Positions 1 to 46,600 of a DNA stretch of 64,000 nucleotides are shown here, piece by piece; positions within the stretch are counted from its first letter, which is position 1; every line of letters begins with the position of its first letter. Source of the stretch: Prorocentrum cordatum (taxonomy: Eukaryota). The notes below the pieces were generated by a model. That model ran no database searches. It had not been told where the DNA came from and was given only the letters and a program-made list of their open reading frames with translations. Location of the stretch: contig CAUYUJ010000022.1 of assembly GCA_963575745.1 (NCBI GenBank), forward strand, positions 1 to 64,000. The letters run 5' to 3'. A program made the translations under genes and the position numbers.

Positions 1-1809
1 CCCCGGCCCTCCAAGATAGCCTGGAAGAGACCCCCCCCCCGAAATGAGACCCCCCTCCCTTTATTACGAAATCTGGAGCATTTGTTGTCATTACGTTTCA
101 GGTACGTTTTCAGCTCGCGTGCAGCCCGCCCCCCCCCCCCCAACTCCCCGTTGCCCTTGCTGCCTCCTGCCTCCGACGCAGCCGTCTCGTCTAAGGGTGC
201 CTGCCAGCAGGGCCCGTGGGCTCGGGATGGCGGCCCACACCAAGCAACGCGTGACCAGGGTGGCCATCAAAGAGTTTGCCCGCCCCCTGAAAAGAAAACC
301 ATTCCTCCATTCTGCATCCAGGAGTGGATGCGAGTGGACGGCGAAACTAATCGAGCGTGCCATTAATAAGCGTGCCATAAGCAAGCATGCGCCCCCGCAG
401 CCCACTTCTGCGAACGCGGCCGAAACTCGGTCCACGGACTCGGGCAAATCGAAAAGCAATCCGCCGTTTTTTGTTGTCCGTTTCGGGGGCCTCGAAAGGT
501 TCTGGAAGGCGCCGTTGTCGGTTGTTTTTGTTTCCGTTTTCGTTCCCCCGCGTCGCCGTTTTTTTTGTTTCCCGTTCCCGAGTCTCTTTTCATTTTCGTC
601 TTCAATGCTCCAAGAGTGGAAACGCCCTGGCCCTCTGTGAGAGACAACTGAGCCCCCGGACATGCCCCAGAGCGCATCCGGACCGGGATGTCGAGGTGAC
701 CCCCTCGTGGCGACGTGGCTTCTCCAGGGAGCCAGCACGAGGTAGAATAGCCCAGACGAATGAAAAAGAACGTCTTCCTCGAGGGTGGGCTCCCTCGCGG
801 TCCCGCACGCGGGGGGGCAGGAGTGAGGAGTAAAAGGAGGACGGTGACGTGGACGAGGAAATTGAGAACCGGAAGCAGGTCGTGGCAGCCATGCTGAAGA
901 GGAGCAGGGGAGGGCTGGGCGGAAGAGGTTATCGGAGGTCCCCAGATGTCTACGGAGGCTCCCAGGGATTATTGAGGATGGCTCCCAGAGGCCTCCGAGG
1001 GCTCAAAAACGACCGGACAAGTCCGAAAACGCCCAGGCAAACACGGATGGGGATACCTCGTCGTTGTTATCGCTATCGTGTCCGTGAAGTTCGTCGTCCA
1101 CGTCGTGTTCGCCCCCGTGCCTATTTTCATCGGTGGCCTCGTCGTCCTTGCCGTCCTTGTCGGCGTCGTCGCTTTCGTCGACGTCGTCCTCGCGACATTG
1201 TCGGCCTCTTGCTCGCCGTCGTCGATCTCACAGCTGTCTTCGGGGGAGGTTCGGGTGCAAGTCCTGCAAAGGTAGATCCAGCATCAACGATGGTATATCA
1301 GTGGTCGAAAATTGGCACAACCTCATCGAATCTAGGGCTTGGTCTGGCTCAATGGCCCCATCATTTGGCTTCAGAGCCCGTAGCCGCTCTTACGAAGACC
1401 TCCCTGGAGTTGTTTCCTCACGGCAGCGTCGCTCGTCTTAGATCGAACGTATATCGGCAAGTGGCGCCCACCAGCGTTCAATAGCAGCCAGTAGCGCCGA
1501 ACAGCGGTCAAATAGAGCCCGATAGCAACTCACGGCCCCCAATGGCGCCACGTGAGGGAGATGCATCCTGTTCGCTTTGCGCCCAATTGGGCGCGCTGTT
1601 GGGCGCCACGGGGATGAGCATCACCTTCCGTGAGCTGGTGCCCGAGTTTCCCACGGTCAGTAGCGTTCAACCCATTCCCATCAGGCCATGGCATCTCGGC
1701 CCCACCATCTCGGCACCCCAGTTGGGGGTGTGCCCCCCGAAGGGAACAGCCTGTGTCCTCATGGGGGGGAGAGATCGGCCAGTGGGGCCCAGGCCATGGC
1801 AGTGGGGAT

Positions 1810-2905
1810 AGGAGGAGGAGGAGGAGGGGGAGGGGGAGGAGGAGGGGGAGGAGGAGGAGGAGGAGGAGGAGGCGAGGAGGAGGAGGAGGAGGAAACGGAA
1901 AAGGAAAGAGGAGGAGGGAGGAAGAGGAGGAGGGGAGGAGAGGCAGGAAGGAGCAGGGACCGGAGCAGGAGCGGCGCAGGAGAGGAGCAGGAGGAGGAGG
2001 AGGAGGAGGAGGAGGAGGAGGGGAGGAGGAGAGAAGAAGCAGGAGGGAGGAGGAGAAGGAAGGAGAAGGCGGAGGCGCAGGAGGAGAAGGATGAGGAGGA
2101 GGAGGAGGCGATGCAGGAGGAGGAGGAAGAGGGGGACGATGACGAGGACAACGAGGAGAAGATGCGAAGATGAGGGAGGGGGAGGAGGGAGGAGGAGGAG
2201 GAGGAGGAGGAGGAGGAGGAGGAGGAGGAGAAGGAGGAGGATGAGGGGAAGATTAGAAGGAGGGGAGGAGAGAGGGGGAGGAGGAGGAAGAGGCAGATTA
2301 GGAGGAGGAGGAGGAGGAGGAGGAGGAGGAGGAGGGTGAGGAGGAGAGGAGGGGGGGGGGGGGAAAAGGATGGAGGAGTGAGGGAGGGGAGGAGGGGGGG
2401 GATGAGGGAGGAGAAGGAGGAGGAGGAAAAGAGGAGGATGAGCAGGAGCAGAGAGGCAGGAACAGGAGCAGGAGCAGGAGGAGGAGGAGGAGAGGAGGAG
2501 GAGGAGGAGGAAGGAGGAGGAGGGTGAGGAGGAGGAGGAGGAGGAGGAGCAGGAGGACAGGGGCGAGGAGGAGGAGCAGGAGTAGGGGGAGGAGGAGGGA
2601 GGTGAGGACGGGGGGGGGAGGAGAGGGAGGAGGAGAAGGAGGAGGAGGAGGGGAGGGAGGAGGAGGCAGAGAGGAAGAAAGAGAGGTAGGGGAGGTTAGG
2701 AGGGAGGGAGTGAGGAGGATTGAGGAGGAGGAGGAGGAGGAGGAGGAGGAGGAGGATCCCGTCAAATGAAGGCCCCTAAGTGGGGGGCCTCAGCCCCCCC
2801 GCCGCCCCCGCCCAGGAGCTGAGCCCCCGGCCTGGGCAGGAGCAGAGCCACTTCTCGCAGTGGCCTGCAGGCCGCTTGCCGCGGGTGGCGGGGTGCGATC
2901 AAGGC

Positions 2906-2936
<31 letters not shown>

Positions 2937-3345
2937 AGGAGGAGGAGGAGGAGGAGGAGGAGGAGGAGGGGGAGGAGGAGGAGGGAGGAGGGGAGAAGGA
3001 GGAGGAGGAGGAGGTAGGAGGAATTTGGGAGAGGTGAGGGAGGAGGAGAAGGAGGAGGAGGAGGAGGAGGAGGAGGAGGCGAGAGGGGAGCCAAGCTTGC
3101 GACTGCGTAGACCAGCCGGGGCTTCGTCCTGGTCGCGCGCACATGGGCCCCACACGAATCAGGAAGGAGGAGCAGGAGGAGAAGGAGGAGGAGCAGGTGG
3201 AGCAGGTTGAGAAGAAGGAGGAGGAGGAGGAGGAGGAGGAGGGATGAGGATGAGGAGGGGGAGGAGAACGACGACGAAGAACAGGACATAATGAGGAGAG
3301 AGGAAGAGGAGGACGAGGAGGAGGAGGAGGAACAGATAAGGAGGA
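1810..3345 (+). repeat. (GGA)n-rich microsatellite field
   Basis: Direct inspection; similar tracts at 5190-5650, 5945-6200, 46795-47020, 50375-50545, 52735-53040, 58360-58820 and 61230-61400. Confidence 0.95.
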
Positions 3346-3477
3346 GACAGGGAGGATCGGCTCTCCACGAAGGCACGATCACTCCTTGACAGTTCGGCGA
3401 GTGTCGAGCCCGTTTGTGCCAATTGAGCCGGTTTGGGCCCGTCTGGGAGGAGGCGGAGGAGGAGGCGGAGAAGGAGA

Positions 3478-3718
3478 TTGTTTTTTTATCCTCTGGGGGG
3501 TAACGCTCGTTACCCGGGCCTCTCCCCCCCCCCCCCCCCCCCCGTAACGGTAACGCTCGTACGCGGGGGGGGTCTCGGTCTTCCCCTCCAACATGCTGGT
3601 GCCCGAAGGCATGCGCACTGTGGTGTGGTGGTCGCAGGCGCACTGTGGGCGCTCGCAGGCCATTGCGGCGCTCGCATGCGCGATGCTGGTGCTTGCGGGC
3701 TTTGCGCTTGTACTCGAA

Positions 3719-3787
<69 letters not shown>

Positions 3788-4130: not shown

Positions 4131-5506
4131 ATCTCAAGGAGGCTTCCAGAGGCAGAAGAGGAGACGAAGATGTCCAAAAAAGAGGGGCGGGGAAAGAGGA
4201 GAATGCACGAACGGCGCGGATGGGGGAGCGGGGGTAACGTTGTATCAGGATAGGTTGTTGGAATCCTCTCCCTCCTCTCCCTCCTCCCCTCCACTCCTCC
4301 GTGCCCCCCTCTGCTTCGTCCGAGGAAAGGGGGACCCCCCTCTGCTTCGTCCGAAGAGAGGGGGGGAGAAGGAGGAGGAGGAGGACGAGGAGGAGGAGTT
4401 GGAGGAAGAGGGCAGGTGTAACGCAACGATGTTGCACTAAACCCTCCTTCAAAGTTTCCTCTTGACCGGCCCCTGCAAACATTCACTTTCATTGTGGGGA
4501 CTGGCCCGTCAGGAGACCACCGTCTGAGAACCCTCAATCGTAGCAACAAACCACTCCTTGGACTGCAGCGCCGCGGGTCAACGTGACCGTTGCGCCCTGG
4601 CGATTTCGAGTCGTGCCAGGACGCAATCCCTGGGACTTCAACGCCGCGAATCGACTTGACTGCTTCGTCTTGACCACCCTGAACCGTGCCAGAGCACCGT
4701 TCCTGGGAGTTCCACCGTGCGATTCCTTAGAAAGCTGCTGCGAACATTTAAAGCACATGTGCGTGGCGCTGAGGCAAGAGCCACGTGCTGGAAAGGAGCA
4801 GCCCCCAGCCGCGAAACTGCTGCCAGCGTTCAGAGAGTCCCCGGCGCTGAAGCGGAACCACATTTTGAGAACGGCCTGCCCTCCATGCGATAACCTTCTG
4901 CAGATCTTGAAGACGAATGTCGGCGGCGCCAAGGCAAGAGACACAGTTTGGAAACGATCCGCCCACCATCAGTGATGAACCTGTTGCACGCTTTCAAGCC
5001 AATGTTGCGAAGCTCTCAGGCGAGAGCCAAATTTTGAAAGCGGCCCGCCTCCCATCAGTGAAATTGTGGCAGGCTGCCAGTTTTAAAATCATATCGGGCG
5101 AGAGCGTCTCAGTCGAAACGTCCGGCACGCGCCAACGACACGTCTAGGAAGCGCGACAGGGGAGAGTTATTAAAAAAAGGAGAGGGGATATAGTAGGAGG
5201 AGGAGGACGAGGAGGTGGAAGAGGAGGAGGATGAGGAGGGCGGAGGAGGAGAAGGAGGAGGGATGGAGGACGGAGCCCCACTGCGCACACAGGGAACGGG
5301 AGAGGGGCGGGGCGATCAGGAAGGGGAGGGGGGGTGCGAGAGGGGATGGAGGAGGGGGTGGTGCCGATCGGGCGAGATGCAGGGTTGTCCGTGTGGCATC
5401 CTGGTGGGTGGGCGACACTTTTTTCGCCAGCGGCGAGGTAGCAGTGCTGCACGAGCGACAGAGCTAAACGGGGCCACCAAAAAGCGCATTGGCCAGCATG
5501 CAGGAG

Positions 5507-7135: not shown

Positions 7136-7298
7136 TCAGGAGGAGAAAAAACACACAGACACAATTAATCGTTTGATCCCCCAGAAAATATGGCAAAATA
7201 TGGGCAGTGGGGGGGAAGACAGAAACCCCAAAAATATGGGAAAATGTAGGGAATCCTTTAATTTGTGTGTATTTATTTGTGTGTCCCAGGGCCCCTTC
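7136..7298 (+). mobile_element. Short dispersed element family A (about 163 bp), copy 1
   Basis: Homologous to 8945-9108 and 16750-16912; flanked by AGACAG direct repeat. Confidence 0.8.
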
Positions 7299-7421
7299 AG
7301 ACAGGCCCCCGCTCCAGCGGCGAGCCCTCACCTCGCAGGAGGTGCGGCCCGAGCCGAGGCGACGGCGCCGAGAACCGTCCCCGCGGATCAGCCAGCGCCA
7401 CCCCTCCGACATGAAAACTCA

Positions 7422-7510
7422 ACGACGGCGGCGAGGACGACGAGGACGAGGACGACGACGACGACGACGACGACGACGAGGACGACGACGAGGACGACGA
7501 CGACGACGAG

Positions 7511-7564
<54 letters not shown>

Positions 7565-7675
7565 GCGACGACGACGACGACGAGGCGACGAGGACGACGA
7601 CGACGACGAGGACGACGACGAGGCGACGAGGAGGACGACGACGACGCCGACGACGCCGACGACGACGACGACGAC
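7422..7675 (+). repeat. (GAC)n microsatellite (also 3720-3787 reverse and 46396-46600); (GAT)n at 52545-52660
   Basis: Direct inspection. Confidence 0.95.
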
Positions 7676-7821
7676 CCCTCCGACGCTGACGGCCCCGAGG
7701 TGCCGGCGGCGCCGCCGGCCGGAGGCGTTTGCGGGCCGCCGGCGGTCTCGCGCGCCGGGCAGGTCGCCGCCGCGCAGGAGCGCTCGCCGGCGCGCTCTCG
7801 GGAGGGGGAGGGGGGCAAGCC

Positions 7822-8944: not shown

Positions 8945-9108
8945 TCAGGGGAGAAAAAACACACAGACACAATGAATTGTCGATCCCCCAGAAAATATAT
9001 ATATAAAAAAATGGGAAGTGGGGGGAAGACAAAAACCCAGAAAATATGGGAAAATATGGGGGATCATTTTATTTGTGTGTATTTATTTGTGTGTCCCAGG
9101 GCCCCTTC
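8945..9108 (+). mobile_element. Family A copy 2
   Basis: Same sequence, followed by AAAA; flanked by a 34-bp near-perfect direct repeat (8909-8942 / 9113-9146). Confidence 0.8.
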
Positions 9109-10047
9109 AAAATAGACAACCGAACTTGTAGCTGGAAGTGCAAATCGTGTTGGTCACACCCTGGCGCGTTCGGCAACACTCTGGCGCCGGTGCCGGTCAC
9201 ACTCGCGCAGAGTTCTGGGCACAGTTTCGGCCACTACACTCCCCGGATAGAGACGGGGCTGCTAATTCCAGCCCCTGGCCGCCAAAACGGGGGAAGGAAA
9301 AAGCAAGACCACCAAGGTCCAGAGATTTCAGCAGGCACAGCGCCCTGCGACACCAACAACGGGCTCGAAAACAAGGTTCAGACACAAACGATACGGGCCC
9401 AAGGGAGCGGGAGGAGGATGGGGACGAAACCCGTGGCGCGCTCTGGCCTCGGGTGTGCAGCCCGCCTTTCCCTCCCTTCGGAGGACGGGAAGACACAAGG
9501 TGAAGAGGAGGAGGAGGACGGGGAGGAGGAGGGGGAGGAGGAGGGGGAGGGGCAAGGGGAGGTGGAGGGGGACGAAGCCTGTGGCGGACACGCCCCGCCC
9601 CAGGCGACCCTGCCTGGTGCCGCAGGGCGCCTCGGAGCTCTCACCTCGGCGCGAGACGGCGCGCGCCGGCCGCGCAAGGGCTCGCGCCACGGAAGACGGG
9701 AGCCCAGCTCCTGCACGGGTGTGCGCGTGGATCGCAGGGGCGTGGCCCGTCCCCCTGAGCGGCTCGCTTCTCCAGCCCCCTCATTTCGGCCGCGCCCTCC
9801 TCCTCCTCCTCCTCTCCTCCTCCTCCTCCTCCTCCTCCTCCTCCTCCTCCTCCTCCTCCTCCTCCTCCAACTAAGCCCCTTTGCACAGCGGGGGGACACA
9901 CCCGCTAACGAAGATCACAACTACCCCTGCCCACACTCCTTTCGGGCTTTTCCTCGGCTCCACAGCCCCAATGTCCTTCTCTTGATGATTGAATCGTCTT
10001 GGGTGAAGTGGTACTCGCGGTCGCTGCTGGCCATCAGCAGCGTTATC

Positions 10048-11472
10048 ATGAGCAGGCTTCAAGGAGTTTCAGTGTTGCAGTACAATCCAATGTCGGCGAG
10101 TTCCTATGACCGTCTGCAGGACATTGCCCAGACTACGACGGGCTTCGACTTTGTATGTCTCACAGGGACTGGGGCTCGAAAGTATGGCACGGAGGAGGTG
10201 GTGTGGAGAAGAGCAGGGAAGAGATGGGCGGTAGAAGCAGGGTGGGCGCGCTCCCCAGGTAGCAACAAGAGCTCGGGCTGCACCATCGTGATGGGGCCAC
10301 GGATGCGACGTGGCACAGTCACTCACACCTGGGCTGCCCCTCCCCACATCGCTGGGAGAGGGGTCGCGCTCAGGGCCCGATGCAGCCAGTATGATATAGG
10401 GATAGCCAGTGTATACTTCCCTCCCCCTCCGCAGCGAGCTTCTGAGATGGCTGGTTACCAAAAAACTTGTGATCGGATAGGCAACTGGATCCGAGGGCTG
10501 CCCTTCCTGGCGGTTTCGCGCTGTTTCCCCATCCTGGCCATGGATCTAAATTCTGGATTTGGGCTTCAGAGGCTACACGGCAGTGAAGACTGGACTGCGG
10601 TGAAAGATAATCGTCTTGGATCGATAGTAGAACCCGTTCGGCAACGCTATGCGGCCGATGTCATGTTAGAGATTCTCAAGGATTTGGATTTCGTCCCCGT
10701 CAATCTTCACTTAGGAGCTGGACCCACATATTACGGCCCATCAGGTAGCACTTCTATGCTCGACTATGTTTTTATTCCCAGATGTTCCCTGGACCAGGTG
10801 ACCTCAGCAGGCCCGCTCCGACGTCTCGCTCGAAAGCTTCAACTCATCCGCCATAAGGATCACCGAGATCATATCCCCCTCCACATCAGGTTCTCGTATG
10901 ACTTAGCCGCTACTACAGGTTCAGAGGCTACGGGACTCCAGGCAGATGAGAGAGTGGGATTCGTACCTAGGCATGTCCGCTGGAGCAAAGAGGCGTTGAC
11001 GGATTGTCTGCGCATGGGCACTCAGAGAGCCGAGTTTTTGCAGGCATTGGAGGCCAAGATGATCGAGGAGCAGGAGGAGTGGCAGAGACGGAGGAGGGAG
11101 GAGCAAACGCCCAATGCTGAATGGGGGATCTTCATCAGGGTGCTCAGGGATACGGCAGAGAGATTCTTCGCAGGCACAGTTCAGAGGTCTCCAGATTACC
11201 CTCAGCAAGCGCAGCACATCCTGGAACTGCTCCGACAACGGCGTAGGCTTCGATTGGAGCTGACTACTGATATCTCTTCTGAGGCCGTCCTCTCGATTGC
11301 AGAGGAGATCCGCATCAAGTCTAGGCAGCTCAGATCTCTCCGTCGGCAGTATCTACATCAGTGGAGACAGGACACCACAGATGACCTCCACGAAGCGCTC
11401 AGGATAGGCAGGCAGGCGGAGGTCGCCAGGCTTTCGCGACTACTCTCGGCTCGTGGGACGGGACCGAAAAAA
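10048..11472 (+). CDS. APE-type (EEP) endonuclease N-terminal part of the LINE polyprotein; continues into the RT frame after a 1-nt shift at A6 (11467-11472)
   Basis: Motifs VSVLQYNPMS, FVCLTGT, IASVYFPP, ILAMDLNS, PTYYG...SMLDYVFIP, DHIPL in ORF 9046..11772. ATG at 10048 (alternative 9985). ORF sequence upstream of the TSD is flanking DNA. Confidence 0.85.
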
Positions 11473-14400
11473 GGAACTACAGGCGCCCTCCCTCTGCCCT
11501 GCCTACCAGCCAGGAGTTGCAAGATAGATGGTCGCTCCCGTCCGCTCAGGGAGGAATGCAGGCTGAACCAATTGACTGGGTTACCTATGCCAATGACTAC
11601 CTCTATCACCCCACCGATGGGCAGGAGGCCAATGTTTTTCTTGGGCAATACACTGAGGAGGGCCTTGAGTGGGCCAAGAAAAAGCTGCAGCAGATTCGCA
11701 AGTATTTGCAGAAGTCTGGGCGTCGAAGAGCTGTTCCAGAATGGTCGGTCCCCATGGAAATGTTTTGGATGATCTTCTTCCCATACAAGCGCACGTCCAA
11801 ACGGTTCCGAGGGGTAGGGTACGAGGCCCCCAACATCGAGCTCAAGGTTGTACGAGGTTTTCTGGTTTCACTCATGCATAAGATTCGACGTTCTCGGCAG
11901 GTCCCACTGGTTTGGCACCTCTCGCAAGCTGCTGCGCTCTCTTGGAAGCGCGCGGTGCACGTTCTGTGTCCATTTGGCAAGGCATTCATCGCCGCGTGCA
12001 TTGACCCAGCTCAGAAAGATGAAGAGCCCCTCTCCTCTCATGGATGTATCGCTCGTCGTCGTCGAGAGACCCCTCTACTCGCCCAGCAAGCTCTTGGATG
12101 GAGGTTACGGCAGCTAGGACTTGAGTTTGTGAACGACCATAAGGATATCAGCAACGCCTTTGGGTCCAGTAGCTGGGATGCCTTAGAAAAAGCCAACAAG
12201 GAGGTCATGAGGGAGGGGGAGCACTACTATGGGGAGCAGAGGTTCAAGTTTTCGGTGGTCTGTTTTCGCGGAGTGGATGGGTATCGATTTGCCAAACCGT
12301 GGGTGGGTGCACTACAAGGAGACCCCTGGGCCGTCAAGGTTTTTGTCCGGGACATCGGAGACTGCTTTGAGGAGGCGCAAGCTGAATACCTCGAGTCGGG
12401 GGAGCCCACGGCAGATCGGTGTACGATCGAGCTTCACCCAGAGGGACAAGAGGTACTAGAAATTGATCTGTCTCTTCATAGTTATGTAGATGATGCTCTG
12501 CGCAAGCTGGTTGCGCACCCGTCGGAGAATGGGGCCATCTCTCTCAGTCGTCAATCTCTCTTGTATGATGCTATCCTGGCAGATTGTCTGGCTCGTCGCA
12601 ATTACCGCCTCAACCCCACCAAGAACGAAAGCGTTATCTCCTTCCAGGGACCTGGACAACAAGCCCGCAAAGCTAGTATAAAGTCTGGAGGCCTACCTAT
12701 GGCGGGAGTACCTAATGATGTGGCTAAATATCTCGGTTCGCTCGTTCGGTATGACAGTAAATTCAGCAGTGAACTCGAAGCTCGACTCTCGGCGGTCTCT
12801 GCAGGATATTGGTCTATGGGGCGGTACTGGTACCAGCCTCGCATCCCTTATGTAGAGAAGAGGGCCATGTTTTTGAGTCGAGTAGTTGGACCAGCAGTCT
12901 CAGCTCTTGAAGCATTCCTTCCTTCTGCTGCTCAGCTAGCTAGAATACAGACTCGAGTGGTTGATTATGGCAGACGAGCTCTTCGAGGTGCTGCTACTGA
13001 ATGGCACAATGGACACCGCAGGTCGATCACATCCCAACGTGTGCTGCAGCTCTGGAGAGTAGCCCCATTAGAAGTTGAGCTCCGAGTCCGTCGTCTAAAG
13101 TGGTATCAGAAATGGATACGTGAACCCCACTATCATGCCGCTGACTGGGGGGCTCTCTTCTTTGCCATCAAGGTTGAACGCGAGCGAGGTCTCCAGATCA
13201 TAGATGAACATGGGCACCTCACAGGACATGCGTCACCATGGGCTCACCGATTTGTCGAGGACGTACAGAGTCTGAGTCAGCTGGGGGGGGGGGGGGAACA
13301 TGCTGAAAAAATCGAGCACTGGGACCGTCGCCCCCTCCAGCTATTTGATGACCCTGAGCTTTCGAACTGGTTCGGAAGAATCGACATCGCCGAGCTGAGA
13401 GCGGCCACATACACAGTGTGTGTTCCCCCCCCTGGATACCAGGCCAGGCCAGATCCCCAAGAACCTGATCTCCCAGAACACCGAGATGGTGATGATTATC
13501 GATGCTGTATTAATGGCTGTGGTAAAAGTTTTGGTACTAGAAGACAGCTTACTAGCCATCTACATCAACATCATGGGTTACTAAATATCCTGGGATTGCT
13601 CACTATTGATAATCAGTGTTTTATTTGTGGGCAGATTTTCGAGTCCAGAAACTCAGCGTATAAACACACCAAGGACTCGTTCAGGACGGGGATTTGCATC
13701 CAGGGCAGGTCGAACACGTTCAGGACCGCAGGCCAAGATGACCATGCCAATTACATGCGCCCGCTCTGTCCCACATATCGGCTCGATCGAGTTTGTCTTC
13801 ATCAACATTTTCGTGAGCACTTCACTGTTCTTCCTATCGTACACGACGTGCGTGATGCCAGAAGGGGCAGCAGCAGCGGCGGCGGCCAGCAGCGAGGAGT
13901 GGAAGCCCAAGGCTCCCAGTTGGGGCCCCCCAGCAGTCAGCAAACCCAAAGCACGACCAGCAGAAGGGGAAGCAGCTGGAGAGCGAGGACCCAAGAGCCC
14001 GCGGCGCCTCAAGCAGCTCAAGCAAGCTACGGAAGACACGATGCAGCGCCATTCCCTCGGACCACTCAAAGCACTGGTAAAAGTTCTCACCAAGTTGTGT
14101 CTCAACAACAGCAGGGACATGGCCGACCTCATTGGCGCTTGCTACAGCTGTTTCATCCTCGCCGCCGCTCATCCACTGGTAGTGGCAGTCCTCGCAGCAG
14201 GGAAGCAGTACTACGAGAGCTGCAAGGAGGCTGGACGCGACCACTCATACGGCCCACCATGGACGCACATGTGGCTGGCGCTGTTGACGGCGCTGCTCGA
14301 GCATCCAGAGACCCCCGAGACGTCCAAGAAGGCCTTGAAGGTCTACTGGGATGCCAACATCGCAGGAGACAGGAGCTCGCTTCACCAGCTGCAGGACCAG

Positions 14401-15053
14401 ATACGGTATTGCAGAATGCGGCCCACATACTACAACAAGCGCAAGCAGGAGAAGCCGACACACTACAAGCTCCAGTTCATGCTGAGCGCGCAGCTGCAGA
14501 GCAGCCAAATCTACTTCGACACGACGCCCGTGGGCACGGTGCACCAGGCGGTGTGCGAGGCTCTCTTCAAGATCGGCGGCAAGTACAAACCAGGGGGTCC
14601 TCCCAAGGGCGGCCTCGAGAGGGAGGCGCTCAAGCTCCTCGGCAGGATGGGCATGAACAAAGCGGACGACGAGGACATGAGCGACGACGACGAGCTGGCG
14701 GGCTAGATGCCAGGCTCACGCACATCGCGGGATCAGAGCGCATGCTCAGCATGGCGCAGCATGGGCAGCTTCAGGATGCCGGACTGAGGGCACTGCAGGC
14801 TCGTTCGAGCCACCCCATCCTTCAGTATACCTCTCCCTCTGGCAGCATCTTCATGGCCTTTTATGCCCCTCCTCTCCAATTCCAGATTTCTTTAGAAGAT
14901 ATCACGACTCGTGCTGCCAGTCTTCGAGCCATGCCTCTACGCGGCTCGACGGCTACTGTTGTTTCTGCAGGTGATCGTGCCCAGGATAGACTCATCAGTA
15001 CAGCGTTGCAGCATGGTGGCGATGATGATAGGATCTCCAACTCCCAGTCATGA
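11473..15053 (+). CDS. Reverse transcriptase with two C-terminal zinc-finger-like motifs and a long low-complexity tail
   Basis: RT motifs DISNAFGS, GALQGDP, YVDD (12483-12494), LNPTKNE, KYLGS; CCINGCGKSFGTRRQLTSHLHQHH and CFICGQIFESRNSAYKH at about 13500-13670; frame open to TGA at 15053. Confidence 0.9.
13855..14706 (+). CDS. 283-aa unknown protein encoded downstream of the RT core and overlapping the RT ORF in another frame
   Basis: ATG 13855 to TAG 14706; normal globular composition (LTKLCLNNSRDMADL, YGPPWTHMWLALL, GGPPKGGLEREAL); third positions visibly G/C-rich; lies inside the TSD-bounded element. Confidence 0.8.
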   Translation: MPEGAAAAAAASSEEWKPKAPSWGPPAVSKPKARPAEGEAAGERGPKSPRRLKQLKQATEDTMQRHSLGPLKALVKVLTKLCLNNSRDMADLIGACYSCFILAAAHPLVVAVLAAGKQYYESCKEAGRDHSYGPPWTHMWLALLTALLEHPETPETSKKALKVYWDANIAGDRSSLHQLQDQIRYCRMRPTYYNKRKQEKPTHYKLQFMLSAQLQSSQIYFDTTPVGTVHQAVCEALFKIGGKYKPGGPPKGGLEREALKLLGRMGMNKADDEDMSDDDELAG

Positions 15054-16112
15054 GGTGGACTGTGGGGGACTTTCGGGTGTGGAGTTCATTTTCCTATCTG
15101 AGCCCCTCGGTGCCTCTCATTTCATACACATACATATTGATTGCGTTGCTTCACTTACTCTTTGAGGGGTTCACTCGTCGCCTCTCAGTGCTTTGCAGGA
15201 CAGATGGTGCCTCGGCGGGGCCCCAAGGTTCCCCCATCAGGGGTCCCCGCATGTGGCCAGTGGAATCCCCCTGCAGAGCGACCGACTACCGATGTCGACA
15301 GACAGCGGACGCAGATCCTCTTGCAGTACAAGGCCGCTCTTCTTTTTTGCACCGTGTAGAGAGGTCACAAGCACATGGGTCGCAAGCGTGTCTTATCTTA
15401 TCCTCCTCCAACTCCTCCTCCTCCTCCTCCTCCTCCTCCTCCTCCTCCTCCTCCTCCTCCTCCTCCTCCTCCTCCTCCTCCTCCAATTCCTCCTCTTGCA
15501 TGGTGGCACAAGTCGCCATAACGGCATCCCGGTTTAGGCCTTTCCGCTGGCGCAGCCTTCCCCTGCCTCGCCGCCGACGCAAAAACGCGTGCATCCAAGG
15601 GGTATATCCTTTTGCCCCCCCCTTCTTCCCCAGAGATCCAGCGTATGGGAAACAGAGGATGGAGGGTTTTCGCTGTTTCGGCATCTAAAGGCCTTCGCTG
15701 GGCCCTGGGACAATCTCGAGGCCCTCGCCGACCCCAGGGACTGTGTCGAGACTTCTATGGGCCCGGTATGGTAGAAAAAAAAAAACGTCGTATCTCTGGG
15801 TCCCTATACACTTTCGGCGGTCGCGGGCTCGAAAGCAGAGTCGCGGCGGAGAATGCTGGGATGCGGTGATCGCGCGGCCGGGCCCTCATGAGAATCTCCC
15901 ATAGGGAGCTCCACCGAAAGCCCCGGTGGACGCGGCCGCATGCGTCTCCCCCACCCAGCGTCCGCCTGTCCGGGGTGGTCGCCCTCCCCCCTGCTCAGGC
16001 CCCCAGAGACCAGGACGCAGACAAACCAGGACACGGAAGACCAAGGAAACGACATCCTTTCCTGCAAAGTCACGTTTTTCAGCACCCTTGCATGTTTTGT
16101 TTGTTTCTGCAC

Positions 16113-16321
16113 GAACGAAATGGGCACGGAAAGAATGGGTATAATGCCCAACAGCAGTTCCTGTTCATTTTGAACAGGACTCGCTGTCCACGCCGCCGCG
16201 GCCTGTGTCCATTTGAGACAGAAGGCCGCCTGCCCAACAGTGGCCGCTGTTGGTTTGGGACAACATTTGTTGTTGGGCATTGTACCCATTCTTTCCGTGC
16301 CCATCTCGGGCGTCCAAACTG
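16113..16321. mobile_element. MITE-like family D (about 210 bp, about 35-bp TIR)
   Basis: TIR ATGGGCACGGAAAGAATGGGTA.AATGCCCAACA; CTGCAC on both flanks; copies at 45269-45480 and (partial, reverse) about 50585-50758. Confidence 0.8.
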
Positions 16322-16749: not shown

Positions 16750-16912
16750 TCAGGAGGGGAAAAAAACACACAGACACAATTAATCGTCGATCCCCCAGAA
16801 AATATGGGAAAATATGGGAATTGGGAGGGAAGACAAAAACCCAGAAAATATGGGATAAGATTGGGAATTGTTTAATTTGTGTGTATTTATTTGTGTGTCC
16901 TGGGGCCCCTTC
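16750..16912 (+). mobile_element. Family A copy 3
   Basis: Same sequence; AAGAC direct repeat at 16745-16749 and 16914-16918. Confidence 0.8.
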
Positions 16913-18399
16913 GAAGACGCAGTCGCGACAGATGGCTTTTTGCTGTTGCCGCCGTCGGCCTCCTGGCCCGGGGGGGGGGGCTGTCGCCAGGTCGCGGGAC
17001 AGTTGAAGGGCCAGTCGATCCTGGGGAATGGGTCGATACCTCCAAGGGTCCACGCCGTGAAACAGACATGGGGTCTGGGATCTGGGCCGATCCTCCCTCC
17101 TCGATTCTGGATCCTGGACTATCGATCTCTCCTTCTGCTGCTGCTGCTGCTGCTGCTGCTAACGGTTGACGAAGGTCATCCTGCAACCGCCTGTCCTGCC
17201 GAGCGCCCGGGGGCTCATTAGGGAAAAGGTGAGACGCGAGAGGTAAGACAAAATTGTGGGGCTCGACCCCAGTAAGGAATAAGAGGGAGAAGGAGAGGGG
17301 GCAGCAACATAACAGACATCCATCGGGGGCAGGAAGAAGAGATGGAGGTACACGGTAAAGCACAGACAGGCGCAGATGGACCCCTAAGGGCCCTGTTTTG
17401 AGTCCCCCCCCCATTTGGGTCCCCCAACCTCATGGGGTCGGTGCCCTGGGGGTGCCCTGGGTCAACCCTTCTGGGGCGCCCTCGTGGACAGAGGATGGGA
17501 GGTGGGTGGGTGGGGGCACTGAGGTAGCCGAAGGTTTTTAATACATGAAAAGTGCCGGTGGCCCTGATGGCCCTGTTGGCAGTTGGCTCCGCTGATGCGC
17601 TGGGTTGCATCGAGTTGGCCCTGTTGGCCATGGTGAGGGTACTCTCTGTGGCCCCAGTGGCCCGGCGGCTAGACAGCGCAAGAAGCTGCAAGGAGATAGG
17701 TATCAAGGCTGTGAGCATATGATCAGCGCCTGGCCCTGGTGGCCCTGTCAGTGTGGGTGGGGCACTGTAGGCTTCAAAAGCACAAGAGGATCGGCGGAAC
17801 ACGGAGGTAGGACGGAGGGTTGTATGGTAGTCCAGGTGGAACCAAGCATCAGGCAGCGGGGGTAGGAGGTGGAGGGTTTGCTTGGTCAGTGCCCTACTGG
17901 CCGTGAAAAAGTGAGAGGACATTTGCGGGGCCATTCTGAGGGTGCCGCGGTGCGGCACGGCCGAAGGCAAGGACCTCAGCTCCTGCAGTTAGGAACCCCG
18001 CCTAGCTAGCAGACGTCATCCTGGCTGGCACCCTCCGCCTCCGAGGATGAAGTTGGGTACCCAGTCCAAGGTGAGTATGTCTGCTGTCTGGGGGGTTCAC
18101 CTCGCGTGGATCTGGTTTGCTTTCGATACTCCCCGACGAAGGCAGTAAGCTGCAACCCTCGTCGGGGGAGGTGAATGGCGTGTGGTGAGGACGGGGTGGG
18201 TAAAGAGATACATGCCATCTGTTTGCAGGTTTCGAACCACGGCAGCATGGCCAACGCCATGCCGCCGACGGCTGAGTGCTCCCCTTCCCGCCCATCATAT
18301 CCCCCCGTCCCGATTCCACAAGAGGGGGGAAGGCGAAGGTTAGCGGGGCGAGGCACGAGGACCAGGAAGGTGGAGAGGGTTGGGGAGATAGGTGGAATC

Positions 18400-31304: not shown

Positions 31305-32307
31305 AAGTCGGGCACGTCCCTCTGAAGGAGGGGCATTCGAGAACAGGAGGGACAAAACAGTCTGGTGACGAGAAGTTCATCATATGTTTCCTGTTTTGGA
31401 ATATGTTTCGCCATTTTTTCCCCTACCAAAATCCGCCTGCAGGAGGGCAGGCCCGGCCTGAGCTTGAGTCGGGCCTGCCCCTCTACAGGAGGAAGATGTC
31501 CAAAATAGACAAAACATAGTCTGGGGACGATTGCTTTCACTATGTTTGGCCACTGGCAGGTATGTTTGGACCATTTTTAAAATTCTTCGCCCAAAATCCG
31601 CCTGCAGGAGTCGGGTCGGGCGAAAGGGGGGGATTGGGAAAGGGGGGGTTTGAGAATCAGCTCACGTAGCTGCTTTTTCCGGCGCCTCCCGGCGCCGGAG
31701 GCGCCTATGTATCGAGGAATGGGCCCCTCGGTGAGGCCGAAACTAGCTGCATGCAGCAAATTTCGTAACCCCCCCTTTCCCAATCCCCCCCTTTCGCCCG
31801 GCCCGAAGGAGGGCATGCCCGACCGGAACCCAAGCCAAGCCCTGTCGAGAGACGGGGAGCGGCGAGCCGGCCACGCGCAGAGCCCGGAGACCCCTCGGGC
31901 CAGGAAGAGAAGCCACGGCGTGGGAGGGCTTTTTCGCTATACGCTCCGCCTCCGGGGGTCGAGCATCTGGGCTTCAGTCGGGCCTGTCCCTCTACTCAGA
32001 GGAGGGAAAGGTATACCCATACCTCTACCCTTGTCTCGTTTTCCCTGGTTTGGGCCTCCTGGGAGGCCCTCGTCGCCACCGCTGGATTCTCCTCGAAATC
32101 TTGGTCAGAACGCGCTCCGGGAGAGGTCCGGGGAGTAGCGGTATCGGTGCCTTTTGGTTTCCCATCTACAGGAGGAATATTTAAAAATAGTCAAAAAAAT
32201 AGTGTGGGGACGATTTGTTTTGACAATTTTTGGGTATCTTAGGGGTATGGTCTGAGTATGTTTGATTTTCCGTCCAGAATCCGCCTGTAGGGGGACATGC
32301 CCGACTT
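31305..32307. mobile_element. Nested cluster: three family B copies, one interrupted by family E (31611-31806) and one by family C (about 31995-32160)
   Basis: B termini resume after each insert; AGGAG duplicated around E and TCTAC around C. Confidence 0.75.
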
Positions 32308-33172: not shown

Positions 33173-33659
33173 CTGGGAGTGATTTTGGACTTTCGCGGGC
33201 CCCGTCTTGAGAAAGGCCACGCGTCGGATTTCTGGGAGGGGGAGGGGGATGGGGGGAGAAGGCGCGGGCCTTATCTTTAGATGTAGGGCCGGCACCCTAT
33301 CAGAAGCAGCTTCCTTCTACCCACCCCTCCCAACCCCTTGTGCGTGCCGTCACGAGAGAGCTGGCTGGATACGGCACAGAGGCGGTCCCCAGAGATCCGA
33401 CATGCTGATTTTTTCAACACGGTGTCCCCTGAAATCTCAACCCATTCCCCAGGACCGGTTTTTCATCCTCAGTCGTTTTTGACGGTCTTGGGGCCCAGCG
33501 AGGGCCTCTGTGGGTCGAAATCGGCGACAAACCTCCGTCTGGTCCCCAACCATCCTGTCGTGTTGGGTCCTCGTTTCGAGAAGACAGCACCCCGCATCAC
33601 TCCTTTTCCTTTCTCCTCCCCTCCCTTCTCCCCCTGCCTCTGCTCTTCGTGTACCCATT

Positions 33660-35696
33660 TCTGCGCACCCATAACACGTTCCGAGGCCCCATAGGGCGCT
33701 CTACCGAAGGCCCCAGTGGCAGCGCCAGCATGGCACCGCCGAACCCATGTCGGCACACAACTCACACGCTTCGTGCCCTAAGGCCCCAGTAGCAGCCCGC
33801 ATGGCGCCGCCACATCCGTTCCAGCACACCCCTCACACAGTGACCACACAGGGAGCTCCACCGAAGGCCGTAGTGGCAGCGCCCGCATGACACAGCCGCA
33901 CCCGTCCCAGCACACCCCTTACACGTTTCGTGGCTCCATGGGCAGCTGCACCCAAGGCCCAAGTGCCAGTGCCCGCATGGCATCGCCGCACGCGTTTCAG
34001 CACACCCCTCACACGTTTCGCGGCCCCATAGGGAGCTCTACCGAAGGCCCAAGTGCCAGCGCCCGCATGGCACCATCGCACCAGTTTTGGCATACCCGTC
34101 ACACGCTTCGTGGCCCCATAGGGGCTCCACCGAAGGCCCCAGTGGCAGCGCCCTCATGGCACCGCCGCGCCTATTCGGCATACCCCTCACACGCTTCGTG
34201 GACCCATGCGGAGCTCCACCGAAGGCCCCAACGGCAGCGCCCTCATGGCACCGCCGCGCCAATTTCGGCACACCTCTCACACGTTTCGTGGCCCCTAGGG
34301 GAGCTCGACCGATACTCACAACTGCATATGGTTGGGTCCTTCGCAATAGTTTCTTCAATACAGAGTCCTTAGAAATGCTGACCCACTCCCCGGGACAGGT
34401 TCTTCATCCTGACTCTTTTTTTGTACTTTTCAGGGGCTTGGTGAGGGCCTCTATGGGGCCGACAACGGCGAATAACCTCCGTCTTGCTCCCAACCATCCT
34501 GTCGTGTCGGGTCCTCGTTCTGAAGAGGCAGCGCTCCGCGTCACTTCTCCCTCCTTCCTCCTCCCCTCCCCCCTTCCTCCTCACATCCCTGCCTCCGCCC
34601 TTCGCATGTCAACCATGCCGGAGCACCACTCACACGTTTCGAGGCCCCATGGGGAGTTCCACCGAACGCCCCAGTGGCAGCGTCCACATGGCACCGCCGC
34701 ACCAATTCCGGCACACCCCTCATGTACCCTGTGGTCCCATAGGGAGCTCCAACTAAGGCTAATAAAGGCCAAAATGCCGGCGTTTGCACGGCGGCGCTGC
34801 CAATTTTCGGCAGACCCCTCATTCGTTTCGTGGCCCCATAAGGAGCTCCAACTAAGGCCCGAGTGCCAGCGTTCGCATAGCGGCGCCGCCCCTCACACGT
34901 TTCGTGGCTCCACAGCGAGCTCCAACTAAGGCCCAAAAGCCAGCGTTGACATGGCGGCGCCGCTTGATTGCGGCACGCCCATCACACGCTTCGTGGCCCC
35001 GCAGGGAGGGCCACAACTAAAGCCCAAACTGTCGGCGTTCGCAAGGCGGCGACGCCTCATGTCGAAATACCCTCTCACGCTTCGTGGCCCAACAGGGAGC
35101 CCCAACTCATGCCTAAATGCGAACGTTTCGCATGGTGGCGCCGCTTAATTTCTACAGATCCTCAAACGTTCCGTGGCCCCACATGGAGCTCCAACTAAGG
35201 CCCAAGCGCCAGCGTTCGCATGGCGGCGCCGCTTCATTCCGGGACACCCCTGACACGTCTCGTGGCCCCACGGGGGGGGCCAAATTAAGACCCCAATGCT
35301 AGTGTTCGCACGGCGGCACCGCCTCATTTCGATACAACCCTCACATGTTCCGTTGCCCCAGGAGAGCCCCAACTAAGGACCAAATGCGAACGTTTCGCAT
35401 TACGGCGCCGCCTCATTCCGGCGCCGCCTCATTCCGGCGCACCCCTGACACGTTTCGAAACCTCCTGGGGAGCTCTAGCTCAGGCCCAGATGCCAGCGCC
35501 CGCAGGGTGACGCCGACTGATTTCGGCACAGCCCTCACGCGCTTCCTGGCCCCACAAGGGAGCTCCAACTGAGGCCTAGATGCCGGCGCTCGCATGGTGG
35601 CGCCGCCTCATCTCGGCACATCCTTCACGCTCCGTGGCCCACTAGGGAGCTCCACACACTGCGCCGGCGCCAGCGCCCGCGTGACGGCACCGCCCA
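33660..35696 (+). repeat. Diverged tandem satellite, unit about 90 bp
   Basis: Recurring CACACGTTTCGTGGCCCCATAGGGAGCTCCACCGAAGGCCC at about 90-bp spacing (e.g. 33851, 33940, 34031, 34121). Confidence 0.85.
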
Positions 35697-35790
35697 AGTA
35701 GGAGGAGGAGGACACGCACATGGCTGATGGGGTGTTCGATGTCCGCCGTGAGAGAGCACGGCTGACTATGGAGGGCTTGGTGCCTCCTCT

Positions 35791-38700
35791 TCACTGACCT
35801 TGGCCTGCTCTTCGCGCACCAATCTGGCCCATGATCGGGGAAAACTTAGAACCCTTGAGATCACGCCCCTCTTGGACACGAGCGAGTTGAGTAGCCGCTC
35901 CTTGGTGGCTCACTCGACTGCCACAGTCTCCAGTGAGCCCTCGACCCAACCCTTCCGAGTAGGATCCACACTTATGGCAAATCAGAATACTCGTTGGATG
36001 ATCAAGGTGCTCATAATAAAATAAACCATGGCCTTTATTATCATGCACGAGGTTTGACAGCTGCTTGCAGTGGCCTGGGCATTCCTTGGCCGCCAGCACT
36101 GCTCTCTGTTTGGTTGACTTTGTCTGCACCCTAGACATAATGCGCCGATGATACTGCGCAATTAAAGCCCACGCATGAATCCTCCTAGGTACCCTGGGCA
36201 CACGAGGGGCCTCATGAGGCACAGGCGGAGGAGGGGGCGGGGGAGGCACGACCAACGACGGCGGCGTCCACGACGACAGGGCAGAGGCAGCACCCGTGGG
36301 GGGGGGAGAGGCTCTTCTCTGGGGCGGCCAAAGCTTTGTTTTTTTCTGGGTGCAATCGCGGGCCACTCTCCCAGAGCCTGAGCAACGTGCTTGAGATATT
36401 TCCCAACAAACTTCCTATCTTCGGCAAGCTTGCACTTCTCACCTTCGCTGGGCTGAACGCCCTTGTGTGCTGCGGCCATCGCTAAGCGATCCGCAGCGTC
36501 ATTGCCTTCTGCCATTCGACGGGCCTCGCTGCCTACGGGTAGGGCTTGTGTATCTTGATGGGCTTTGACTTTTTAGAGCCTCGACCCTAAATGAAAGAGC
36601 CCTCGGCCAGCCAAGACTTTAAACCCAGCCCGCAGATTGCGACGGGGGTACTCGGTGCCTTGATGCAGCACTAGTACTCCTTTGTAGTCATAATAAAGTA
36701 CTTCAACATTGCTGGACATAAGACTTGCCGCGGCTGCAGCCAAATGCCCCGCGGCTCCCGACGTTTGTAAAAACATCTGGCCGACTCGGCCACTGAAATG
36801 GGCAACAACTTCACCTTCTCTGAAACATACTACAGCGAAACCAGCAGCGTTGAGCACATAGTGCCCATGATTGGTGCAACTGCCATCTATAAACGCTTCC
36901 CCCCCGCTGAAAGCCTCTTGAGGGGTGGTGCCTTCTTGAGCGCACCAAAACTCCCCAAACTCCAATCCAGATCCAGGAGGAGGCGCTCCGCGGAACTCAG
37001 GGACCAGCTGGAACCCAAGACGTGAAAGGGGGGCCTGGGGAGGGGGCTCTCTTAAACGCTGAAGCTCCGCATCCGAGAAGTGAGTGGCTCTGAGAGCTTC
37101 AGTCTTCTGGCAGTGCAGTAATCTGTGGCAGAGGTTGTCCGAGTGATGGCCGCGCTCGCAGCCGACTGGAACTTCGTATCCTGCTGCTTTGGCTCTCTCC
37201 ATGGTCCAGATACTTTGGGTGGGGAAGGCGAGTGAGGGGCCTTTCTGATGTCTAGGAAGGTCTGGCGAGAGAGCCATCCGAGCAGCCGTGACGTCTAACT
37301 GAGCGTCCGCGTGGCCGAGCTTGACGGCCGCCTTGGAGGCGAGCTGGCCGCGCCAGTCGTGCTCCATGAGCTTTTGGGGGGAGGCGGGGGAATGTCCTGG
37401 GGGTGGGTACTCAAGACCTGAGGCAGTCACAAAGGTAAGCGGCCCTTGGAATTTCCAAGCAATGTGCTTCAACGACAACGCCGCCGCACTGAGGAGGGGC
37501 CTGGAAGAGCCCCGCGGTTTAGAAACTCTCGGGGTAATGTTTTCAGCCCAAGCTCGCAGCTGCTGGAGACTAGCCACGGCCAAGTGCGGACGGGCGTTCG
37601 CATCCCAAACTAAACGATGCCACATAATGGCGGGACCGAGGGCCGCTTTCCACAAGGGGTCCTGGAGGATGAGCAACGCCAGGCTGCGGCTGCGGGTCGA
37701 GCATCTCGGGCCCGCAGCAGCCAGAAACTGCGACCTAGCAGGTTCAAGTTGAGTGCCGTTGATGCCAGTGACCTCGACTCCAAAAGTGGTGGCCGCTTCC
37801 AGGCCAGTCTTATACAATTTGTGAATGGTGCCCCCAGCACGTTTGAGAATGCGGACCCTGTTGAGTCTGTTACGCATCTTGTCAAGACGCTCCGTAAGTT
37901 TTCGAAACTTCCTCCATCTTCTCTGGGGGCGGCCAGCCCCAGTTTCACCCCCCTGGTTGGGTCCCGAACGATCGGGGTTCGGGCCTGCCAGAGGCCCTAG
38001 CTTGGTCCTGAGCTGGTCCTGCAATGCCTGGTGAGACGCTAGCACCTGGGACTTATTGCTGTCAACCTGGCACTTAAACTAGTGGATGATGCAATCCGCC
38101 ATCGATCTAGCGGCTATGTCCGACGGGCTAACGATGAGGCTGAAACTGGTCAATGAACATAGCGAGTCTTATGTAGCTATGGGCATGTGTCCATATGTCC
38201 AAGGGGGCGAGCACATACATCTGCACAAGGTACGCGGCCCAACTGCAGCCAGCAGCAATGCCCCTCCAAGGTTTGCCGACGCTGACCGCGCAATCCTGCA
38301 ACGAAGCGATGCGTTCGCTGGCATACTGCGATAGAATGATGCGAAGTAAACAACAAGGACAACCTGACTCAACAGCACGATGTGCTAGACATGGTCGACC
38401 AACATGTTCGTAGTAATTAGATAGATCATAGAGGACTTGGGCGCTGCATGGTTGATCTATGGCTGAGCTGTTGGACTCGCATTCCAAGGATTGTTTGTAT
38501 TCCAATTCAACAATAGAGTGGCCAGCCTGGTGAGCTAGATAAAGGCCGACGGTGGTGGGCTTCCACTCCCTGGCTGCCGACCTCCTAAGGCGGGCCCAGA
38601 CACGATAGAGCGCTGGTAGCATACCAATGGACCTGAACGAGGGCTGACTGACTGGAGTATCATGTTGTTTCTGTTTAATCATAAGCGCTGAGACAATCCC

Positions 38701-46537: not shown

Positions 46538-46600
<63 letters not shown>

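Follow-up and report, generated by a model that had tools for sequence, protein, structure and literature searches.

The architecture of long interspersed nuclear elements (LINEs) is usually taken as fixed, with open reading frame (ORF) 1 first, if there is one, and the polymerase last. In the two-ORF LINEs that carry an apurinic/apyrimidinic endonuclease (APE; L1, CR1/L2, Jockey and I), ORF1 lies upstream of ORF2, and cis-preference is usually explained by attachment of the ORF2 protein (ORF2p) to the 3' end, which lies close by, of the RNA from which it was translated. The ingi/L1Tc group of trypanosomatids and Vingi are single-ORF APE LINEs that end in C2H2 fingers, and we know of no conserved gene after the fingers in either. 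A further arrangement is found in SART1, a dicistronic LINE with coupled translation through a UAAUG stop-start. Here we describe an element with another layout in the dinoflagellate Prorocentrum cordatum, at positions 9873–15400 of a 64,000-nt stretch (the window; assembly GCA_963575745.1, contig CAUYUJ010000022.1, positions 1 to 64,000 of the forward strand). In our reading of it, to which as a whole we give a probability of about 0.65, this is a recent and nearly intact APE-type retrotransposon of the class without long terminal repeats (LTRs); it would have a single ORF for endonuclease (EN), reverse transcriptase (RT) and fingers, no ORF1, and a conserved downstream gene, ORF3, encoding an accessory protein of the element ribonucleoprotein (RNP) from its own AUG on a separate RNA. 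The proposed order is thus a short 5' untranslated region (UTR), the long ORF (APE endonuclease, RT, C2H2 fingers), ORF3 (about 200–280 aa, basic, alpha/beta fold) and a 3' UTR.

Judged from its sequence, the element resembles the two-ORF APE LINEs in carrying RT behind an APE endonuclease within a single ORF, and in having a flanking putative target-site duplication (TSD), many copies, and a second protein of its own that is probably nucleic-acid-binding. It departs from them in that the second gene lies 3' of the EN–RT ORF, in the short leader of 112–175 nt ahead of the EN ATG, and in having no poly(A) tail; unlike the ORF1 proteins (ORF1p) of those elements, ORF3 has no RRM, CCHC, coiled-coil, esterase or other Pfam domain and no structural match. 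The likeness to ingi/L1Tc and Vingi lies in the missing ORF1, the one long APE–RT–C2H2 ORF and a host with spliced leaders (SLs); the differences are the presence of ORF3 after the fingers and the lack of an RNase H domain in the Pfam results. The fingers of the window copy match Pfam weakly (E 0.005–0.04). The overprinted genes of RNA viruses and the dicistronic LINEs are comparable in that two frames run over the same nucleotides and the downstream gene is reached by non-canonical expression. Unlike coupling of the SART1 type, there is no ORF2 stop near the ORF3 AUG in the window copy, and the overlap is not conserved in relatives. Outside the LINEs, LTR retrotransposons and retroviruses have been described, in the passages of one article that we consulted, as carrying an ORF3 downstream of pol that encodes env or other captured genes (PMC5718144). 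The window element shares with these an extra, lineage-specific ORF 3' of the polymerase that would need its own expression route (subgenomic or spliced RNA); it differs in that they have LTRs and an integrase, as against target-primed reverse transcription, and in that its ORF3 is not env-like and has no known fold. The titles and abstract openings covered by our literature search, in which Repbase and Dfam were not included, describe no APE LINE with a conserved downstream ORF, and the passages covered from the dinoflagellate genome literature do not describe LINE structure (basis, in part: PMC6338049, PMC12014239, PMC11453091, PMC8045281, PMC5006619, PMC5718144). For the LINE class, a conserved gene that follows the polymerase is unusual; it raises the questions of how its translation is achieved and how cis-preference can persist, in genomes that have been shaped by retroposition.

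Coding stretches were read from stop maps of the + strand, with frames numbered as position mod 3. Three were found in the element: frame 1 is open to 11770, frame 0 from 11385 to 15053, and frame 1 again from 13585 to 14704. The last of these holds the intact 283-aa ORF, here ORF3, that a first-pass annotation of this DNA had recognised; its start is backed by the family alignment, as the Met at 13855 aligns with the N-termini of other members and lies, like theirs, about 10–20 residues ahead of a P-x-W motif. The annotation was also correct in describing ORF3 as rich in G and C at third codon positions (GC3), the value being 0.76 as compared with 0.53 in RT and 0.60 in EN. An exhaustive HMMER search, counted as cluster representatives at 50% identity, identified 371 relatives at E≤1e-3, 71 at E≤1e-10 and three at E≤1e-30. 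A profile built on the ORF3 alignment (A1) has a domain match in all 156 family proteins examined; 108 of them span profile positions 45–225, and 97 of these 108 begin with M (median length 248 aa). Most relatives are stand-alone proteins of 200–280 aa, and the conserved blocks are LVxxLxKLxLxN, H-x-LGPP-x-x-H, VR-x-CR and G-x-(A/P)P-x-G-x-LEREA-x-x-LL. The named members are all from dinoflagellates (P. cordatum, Polarella glacialis and Symbiodinium sp. CCMP2456), two fragments are entered under the EukProt transcriptome of Pyramimonas (one of 121 aa, 98% identical to the window ORF3, the other 77%), and most of the rest come from ENA, JGI or Logan contigs of 0.7–2.9 kb. Based on these alignments, we consider ORF3 to be a real protein gene of a large uncharacterised family, a "dark" family (371 clusters, mostly on environmental contigs of about 1 kb) that thereby gains a context and now appears to be transposon-encoded.

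The family is basic, with a median isoelectric point (pI) of 9.18 and a pI above 8 in 90% of 105 members. An AlphaFold2 (AF2) model of ORF3 from 60 sequences is confident (predicted local distance difference test, pLDDT, 85.6; predicted template-modeling score, pTM, 0.78); in it, roughly the first 65 residues are basic and disordered, and the core is alpha/beta. The structure search that the first-pass annotation had suggested for this protein thus yielded a good model but no Foldseek match at E≤0.001 in PDB or BFVD; weak ferredoxin-like or RRM-like rows appeared at E 0.5–2. Against 48,161 chains (VIA-align) nothing exceeded background, the best Z of 5.7 involving helices only, and the profile found nothing credible among PDB sequences. 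When 60 family members were scanned singly against Pfam, the window ORF3 matched no family and three unrelated families had one member each; a word-indexed protein search with ORF3 found nothing, and the ESM Atlas gave no family for the relative P0009 (best score 0.89, bacterial hypotheticals). None of the ORF1p types (RRM/CCHC, L1 coiled-coil–RRM–C-terminal domain, esterase) has a sequence or fold match to ORF3, a result with which a distant relation is compatible. ORF3 may act as a nucleic-acid-binding accessory protein of the element RNP, taking the role of ORF1p without kinship to it. Two P. cordatum gene models, P0102 and P0151 (960 and 974 aa), contain an ORF3-like segment at residues about 191–355 between flanks that look nucleotidyltransferase-like by eye; the segment is probably an element fragment absorbed into the gene prediction.

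The association of ORF3 with the retrotransposon was found in three places outside the window copy. The first is a 969-nt contig (record 6) of DNA run X1 that spans 13518–14486, and so both fingers and ORF3, of another, near-identical copy with 11 differences and no gaps. Five of the eight substitutions that fall inside ORF3 are synonymous in its frame and one of the eight in the RT frame, which, although the numbers are small, points to selection on ORF3. The second is L001, a metagenome relative whose RT segment matches that of the window (E 2e-51, 25–30% identity) and which carries an ORF3 homologue of 206 aa (profile E 1.9e-39; ATG at 3758, stop at 4376) on the same strand, about 650 nt past the RT-frame stop at 3105. 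Stops occur in all frames of the intervening gap, and neither the spacer between fingers and ORF3 nor the 3' region is similar between L001 and the window. The third is P0132 (CAE7468839.1), a 323-aa protein from a 1,566-nt scaffold of Symbiodinium sp. CCMP2456, of which residues 1–164 correspond to the RT C-terminus and finger region (E 5e-23 to P0152, the full-length ORF2 relative described below) and residues 203–319 to the ORF3 domain (E 5e-14). Since the order of RT and fingers followed by ORF3 recurs in L001 and P0132, ORF3 is part of the element and not a passenger, and RT and ORF3 have diverged about equally among the lineages (23–34% identity), as expected under co-inheritance. To the extent that sequence comparison can do so, these data show ORF3 to be a component of the element that is inherited with its RT. 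The first-pass annotation had proposed a distinct architecture with an ORF1 equivalent or other accessory gene downstream; the real 3' gene and its recurrence in the near-identical copy, L001 and P0132 bear out the architecture, but equivalence to ORF1 gained no support from Pfam, PDB or BFVD. That annotation had also named homologues upstream of the endonuclease as an outcome that would speak against it: none lies upstream of EN in the window, and in L001 no EN is found downstream of ORF3. An alignment-based locus search detected no relatives in viral contigs or genome contigs. Two other features of L001 are a region at 3140–3500, in the spacer between fingers and ORF3, where units of about 73 nt containing CCCCA runs are repeated in tandem and an AT-rich stretch also occurs, and a TTAGATTACAT-like minisatellite at 4590–5010, starting about 210 nt past ORF3, that may be the 3' tail of the element.

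We examined whether ORF3 might instead be a host gene or retrogene, picked up by the window copy through 3' transduction or template switching, or merely adjacent to it. Its codon usage, unlike that of EN and RT, and the predominance of stand-alone homologues on short contigs would both suit such an origin. We nevertheless judge it very unlikely: the same gene order is repeated in L001 and P0132 with both RT and ORF3 at 23–34% identity, ORF3 lies inside the direct repeats, its depth in X1 is of the same order as that of RT with one contig bridging the junction, and a family of 371 clusters better fits a transposon protein.

A second alternative is that ORF3 is a C-terminal domain of ORF2p, reached by a programmed +1 frameshift within 13585–13855 or lying in frame in other copies, such that the separate ORF is an artefact of the window copy. 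No ORF2 stop precedes ORF3, frame 1 is open from 13585, and in the P0132 gene model the ORF3 domain is in frame with the RT C-terminus. The second finger of P0132, however, is cut short halfway, which is what removal of an intron in a gene model would produce, and the gapless X1 contig over 13518–14486 is an independent short-read assembly, so the frames are real. The initial Met in 97 of the 108 members, ahead of the conserved P-x-W, the 650 nt with stops in all frames before the L001 homologue, and the end of P0152 about 58 aa past the residues aligned with the window fingers all further argue against a fusion, which we therefore regard as improbable, if less so than capture of a host gene.

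Returning to ORF3 as a separately expressed gene, we infer from the conserved Met, the N-terminal motif and the stop-filled spacer of L001 that translation begins at the AUG of ORF3 itself. A gene placed so far behind an ORF of 3.7 kb needs either an RNA of its own or internal entry; termination–reinitiation is excluded for the window copy by the lack of an ORF2 stop near 13855. (A TGATG at 13853–13857 was considered as a stop-start overlap and rejected, its TGA being in the third frame.) Translation would then be from a separate processed RNA, and the simplest route to it in a host with spliced leaders, simpler than reinitiation or fusion, would be addition of an SL at a site ahead of 13855. 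The AG closest to the ATG on its 5' side is at 13816–13817. The many complete ORF3 homologues on contigs of less than 1 kb, and the TTTGTTTCAG located 10 nt ahead of the ORF3 ATG in L001, are consistent with such a route and not probative of it; no SL-derived peptides were seen at the N-termini of family proteins.

The classification of the element as a LINE relies on three matches: that of the EN model to APE1, that of L001 to RVT_1, and the RVT_1 annotation of the Atlas neighbours of P0152. The AF2 model of EN, made from an alignment of two sequences (pLDDT 64.8, pTM 0.71), matched APE1/exonuclease III structures in PDB by Foldseek (best 6w4i_A, E 1.3e-10, probability 1.00, TM-score about 0.5; 296 matches at E≤0.001), and the predicted fold identifies this segment as an APE-type endonuclease. 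The position that we take to be that of the catalytic Glu in the APE "QET" motif reads as Gly, by eye, both in the window (LTGT, 10150–10165) and in P0152 (LPGT, residues 28–33), and the metal-binding residue of EN may thus lie elsewhere. RT identity is assigned through homologues. Segment 1391–2278 of L001 matches Pfam RVT_1 (E 4.5e-6, 27.0 bits), and the ESM Atlas clusters nearest P0152 carry RVT_1 (100%), zf-C2H2 (52%) and Exo_endo_phos (37%), with a top score of 0.97 and all ten of the best family-bearing matches sharing family or clan with the best. In the window itself the motifs DISNAF, QGDP and YVDD can be read in the RT frame (coordinates in the table). Pfam at E≤10 gave zf-C2H2 families alone for the ORFs of the element, all under the gathering score, and showed no RNase H domain in the window. 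PDB sequence searches with the RT and with an EN–RT profile returned nothing relevant. A word-indexed protein search with the whole RT found nothing, and a query with the RT core region found P0152.

P0152 (1258 aa, on a 5,326-nt ENA contig) is the sole full-length relative that we found, and it explains the relationship of the two ORF2 frames in the window. Its residues 1–440 align with frame 1, to about nt 11464 (26% identity over 476 columns, E 6e-39), beginning MVLYNPMS... where the window reads ...VLQYNPMS..., and its residues 433–1200 align with frame 0, from about nt 11433 (28% identity over 785 columns, E 2e-78). The window copy therefore has EN and RT out of frame with each other, at a run of six A residues; the RT frame is as the first-pass annotation had described it, but its term "RT ORF" overlooks that EN is split off there by one nucleotide. 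An extra A after 11466 is present in one X1 contig (depth 16.2 of 29.2, part of the X1 depth at the run being without it) and in one contig from the freshwater metagenome X2 (3.5 of 3.5). With seven A residues the junction peptide, its codons read by hand, becomes ...GTGPKKRNYRRPPSA and matches GTGIGVKKRFYKAPSAF of P0152. Since A7 restores a P0152-like junction and contigs with the extra A exist, the ancestral element had a single EN–RT–finger ORF, and the A6 of the window copy is either a 1-nt deletion or a homopolymer assembly error.

Several points weigh against the reading that we favor. Linkage of ORF3 to RT was seen outside the window in only three places, of which one is a near-identical copy and another, P0132, a gene model in which an intron or a change of frame may be concealed; most homologues are on contigs of 0.7–2.9 kb, and solitary copies of ORF3 independent of RT are possible. 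The closest homologue (98%) is filed under the transcriptome of a green alga, Pyramimonas, not a dinoflagellate. L001 is a decayed copy, with an in-frame stop and a frameshift in RT and no EN, and its RVT_1 match of 27.0 bits is under the 29.6-bit gathering cutoff. Neither EN nor RT of the window has a Pfam match even at E≤10, and the EN model is backed by two sequences at a pLDDT of 64.8. The function of ORF3 is read from its charge and position only, with no fold or family match behind it. Finally, the SL route is a guess: a search with the 21-mer of the dinoflagellate SL (DinoSL), allowing up to three mismatches, gave 0 matches in the window, and hence no SL relic.

That the element belongs to a dispersed repeat family was apparent from X1, in which 123 contigs match the region (25 at ≥99% identity, 33 at 95–99%, 23 at 90–95% and 42 at <90%). 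Summed depth, which is contig depth and not a copy count, is 5–14 over the first kb of the element and about 17–36 over the remainder. It falls to 0–1.9 in two bins upstream of 9834 and to 2.5 in the last bin (15693–15900), while the 24.8 reached in bin 15476–15692 is owing to an unrelated short repeat just past the element, so that high depth is limited to about 9834–15475. We conclude that 9873–15400 is a copy of a dispersed repeat family whose limits agree with these ends. (The alignments were cut at (CCT)n tracts, and contig ends at 15396 carry no weight as boundaries.) Two observations relate to 5' truncation of family members: L001 begins within the linker, with no EN match, and X1 depth, again contig depth rather than copy count, climbs from 5–14 to 21–36 past the first kb. 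The absence of an upstream ORF1, which the first-pass annotation had deduced from the short leader, was confirmed, as 112–175 nt separate the element start from the EN-frame ATGs at 9985 and 10048 and the DNA upstream of 9834 is outside the repeat; P0152 likewise opens directly with EN. The annotation's description of the element as bounded by a TSD holds in so far as the exact 13-mer TCCTCCTCCAACT adjoins both ends, inside (CCT)n tracts. It is weakened by two further copies of the 13-mer, at 58786 and 58807 in a different (CCT)n tract, and the TSD is therefore plausible and not unique. The 3' end of the window copy (...TCTTATCTTA) has no poly(A) tail, and RNA folding of 15051–15400 indicated nothing unusual (z −0.08).

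Sequences of the family were also found outside the host assembly. Pieces of 151 nt identical or near-identical to the element occur in X2, and pieces of about 90–99% identity occur in a third data set, metagenome X3, indicating that the host or its close relatives are present in environmental samples. Two other repeats lie near the element. A short interspersed repeat unrelated to the LINE, at 15496–15585 immediately after the 3' (CCT)n tract, is present in many X1 and X3 contigs with varied loose ends on both sides, and a 143-nt direct repeat occurs in three copies (7175–7317, 8985–9127 and 16789–16931; 70–83% identity), two of which flank the LINE about 0.75 kb upstream and 1.4 kb downstream.

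Table. Features of the element and its flanks; positions are those of the window.
Feature	Position	Strand	Remarks
5' direct-repeat copy TCCTCCTCCAACT, putative TSD	9860..9872	+	exact 13-mer closing the (CCT)n tract
Element 5' UTR	9873..10047	+	112 nt to ATG 9985, 175 nt to ATG 10048; an ORF1 would not fit
APE-type (endonuclease/exonuclease/phosphatase, EEP, fold) endonuclease domain (predicted)	10048..10905	+	frame 1; AF2 and Foldseek match to APE1; 26% identity to P0152 N-terminus
EN–RT linker	10906..11466	+	frame 1; alignable with P0152 to about residue 440
A6 run, site of 1-nt deletion (or assembly error)	11467..11472	+	one more A in two contigs of other runs
RT and following domain (assigned by homology)	11469..13496	+	frame 0; DISNAF (motif A) 12144–12161, YVDD 12483–12494
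Two C2H2-type zinc fingers, C-terminal end of ORF2	13497..13679	+	weak in Pfam; aligned with P0152 fingers
ORF2 (RT) frame continuation past fingers	13738..15053	+	spans all of ORF3 and 347 nt more; TGA 15051–15053
ORF3, predicted 283-aa basic protein	13855..14706	+	frame 1; pI 8.97; GC3 0.76; large uncharacterised family
3' region, ORF3 end to element end	14707..15400	+	terminus ...TCTTATCTTA, without poly(A)
3' direct-repeat copy, 13 nt	15401..15413	+	exact match to 5' copy; (CCT)n next

The first-pass annotation had further reported that the RT frame stays open across all 852 nt of ORF3 and for some 350 nt beyond, and had raised the possibility of dual coding. The observation itself is accurate, the frame being free of stops through ORF3 and a further 347 nt, to 15053. 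Relative to ORF3 the RT frame is −1, and a stop in it requires an ORF3 codon ending in T followed by AA, AG or GA. T-ending codons number 20 of the 283 (7%), none of the 20 precedes AA, AG or GA, and 5.7 stops were expected where none was observed. Zero stops occurred in 0.08% of 5000 shuffles of codon order and in 0.56% of 5000 synonymous resamplings. Applied to other segments, the same null model predicted stop counts close to those found (expected/observed: EN 23.1/18; RT 48.4/48; L001 ORF3 14.2/13; L001 RT C-terminus 18.3/19). For the additional 345 nt, to 15050, mononucleotide shuffling leaves no stop in 1.7% of cases. Elsewhere in the window, frames are open for 1314 nt at 0.04% (+ strand) to 0.6% (− strand) of positions. 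The openness of the RT frame is thus unlikely by chance (P about 0.001–0.006, and roughly 10^-3 even allowing for its having been noticed post hoc).

Whether the open frame has a function is a separate matter, on which we consider the odds to be even. The master copy of the subfamily may simply have been without a stop past the fingers, whether by loss or from the outset, in which case the lack of stops in a T3-poor ORF and 345 nt more is luck noticed after the fact. Open frames of 345 nt are found at 13–21% of positions in the rest of the window and those of 852 nt at 0.9–2.8%, and long ORFs in multiple frames are common in this GC-rich and repeat-rich DNA. The encoded tail (13857–15050) is of low complexity, rich in R, A, G, Q and S, with a pI of 11.5, and seven of the eight substitutions in the second copy are non-synonymous in the RT frame, which is open through 14486 in that copy, the one further member of the subfamily that was examined. 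Set against a functionless frame are the small fractions of shuffles and resamplings that lack stops, the fit of the null model to EN, RT and the L001 homologue, the complete avoidance of AA, AG and GA after T-ending codons, and the fact that the frame left open is the very continuation of ORF2. Beyond the subfamily the frame is not kept open: L001 has nine RT-frame stops across its ORF3 homologue (13 in the other frame), and P0152 stops about 58 aa past the last residues alignable with the window finger region. Dual coding would therefore be at most a subfamily trait, and the proposal, for which the window copy is statistically unusual enough, does not extend to the family.

We put forward, as a doubtful extension of the reading favored here, that ORF3 is truly overprinted in the subfamily of the window, with a strongly basic, R/G/S/Q-rich ORF2p tail of about 440 aa whose frame is kept stop-free by selection, and that, more broadly, there is a dinoflagellate LINE clade with an RNP protein 3' of the polymerase expressed from an SL-trans-spliced subgenomic RNA. 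If selection acts on the overlap of ORF3 with the ORF2 frame, the element would provide one of the rare cases of overprinted genes among cellular retrotransposons. Ribosomes reading the tail could then carry the nascent ORF2p up to a point within 350 nt of the 3' terminus of the RNA, allowing cis-preference despite a gene after the polymerase; alternatively, the full-length RNA could benefit by avoiding the decay that a long 3' UTR provokes.

Repeats are also abundant elsewhere in the window. Arrays of tandem units about 90 nt long occur at 33650–35700 and 43074–43540, and dispersed inverted repeats of 172–183 nt with 86–93% complementarity (31624–31806 with 48763–48945; 45271–45442 and 16105–16279 with 50584–50758) probably represent another repeat family. 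On the minus strand, 36573–40182 contains two adjacent long ORFs (501 and 684 aa) without a Pfam match that could be an unrecognised element or gene; Pfam found nothing in eight long ORFs of the window other than those of the element. Tracts of (GGA)n/(CCT)n and (GAC)n are very abundant (e.g., 1760–3330, 7350–7730, 41812–41890, 46329–46650 and 58520–59950) and yield long ORFs in overlapping frames, and a variant unit, CCAACT, is recurrent in the (CCT)n arrays.

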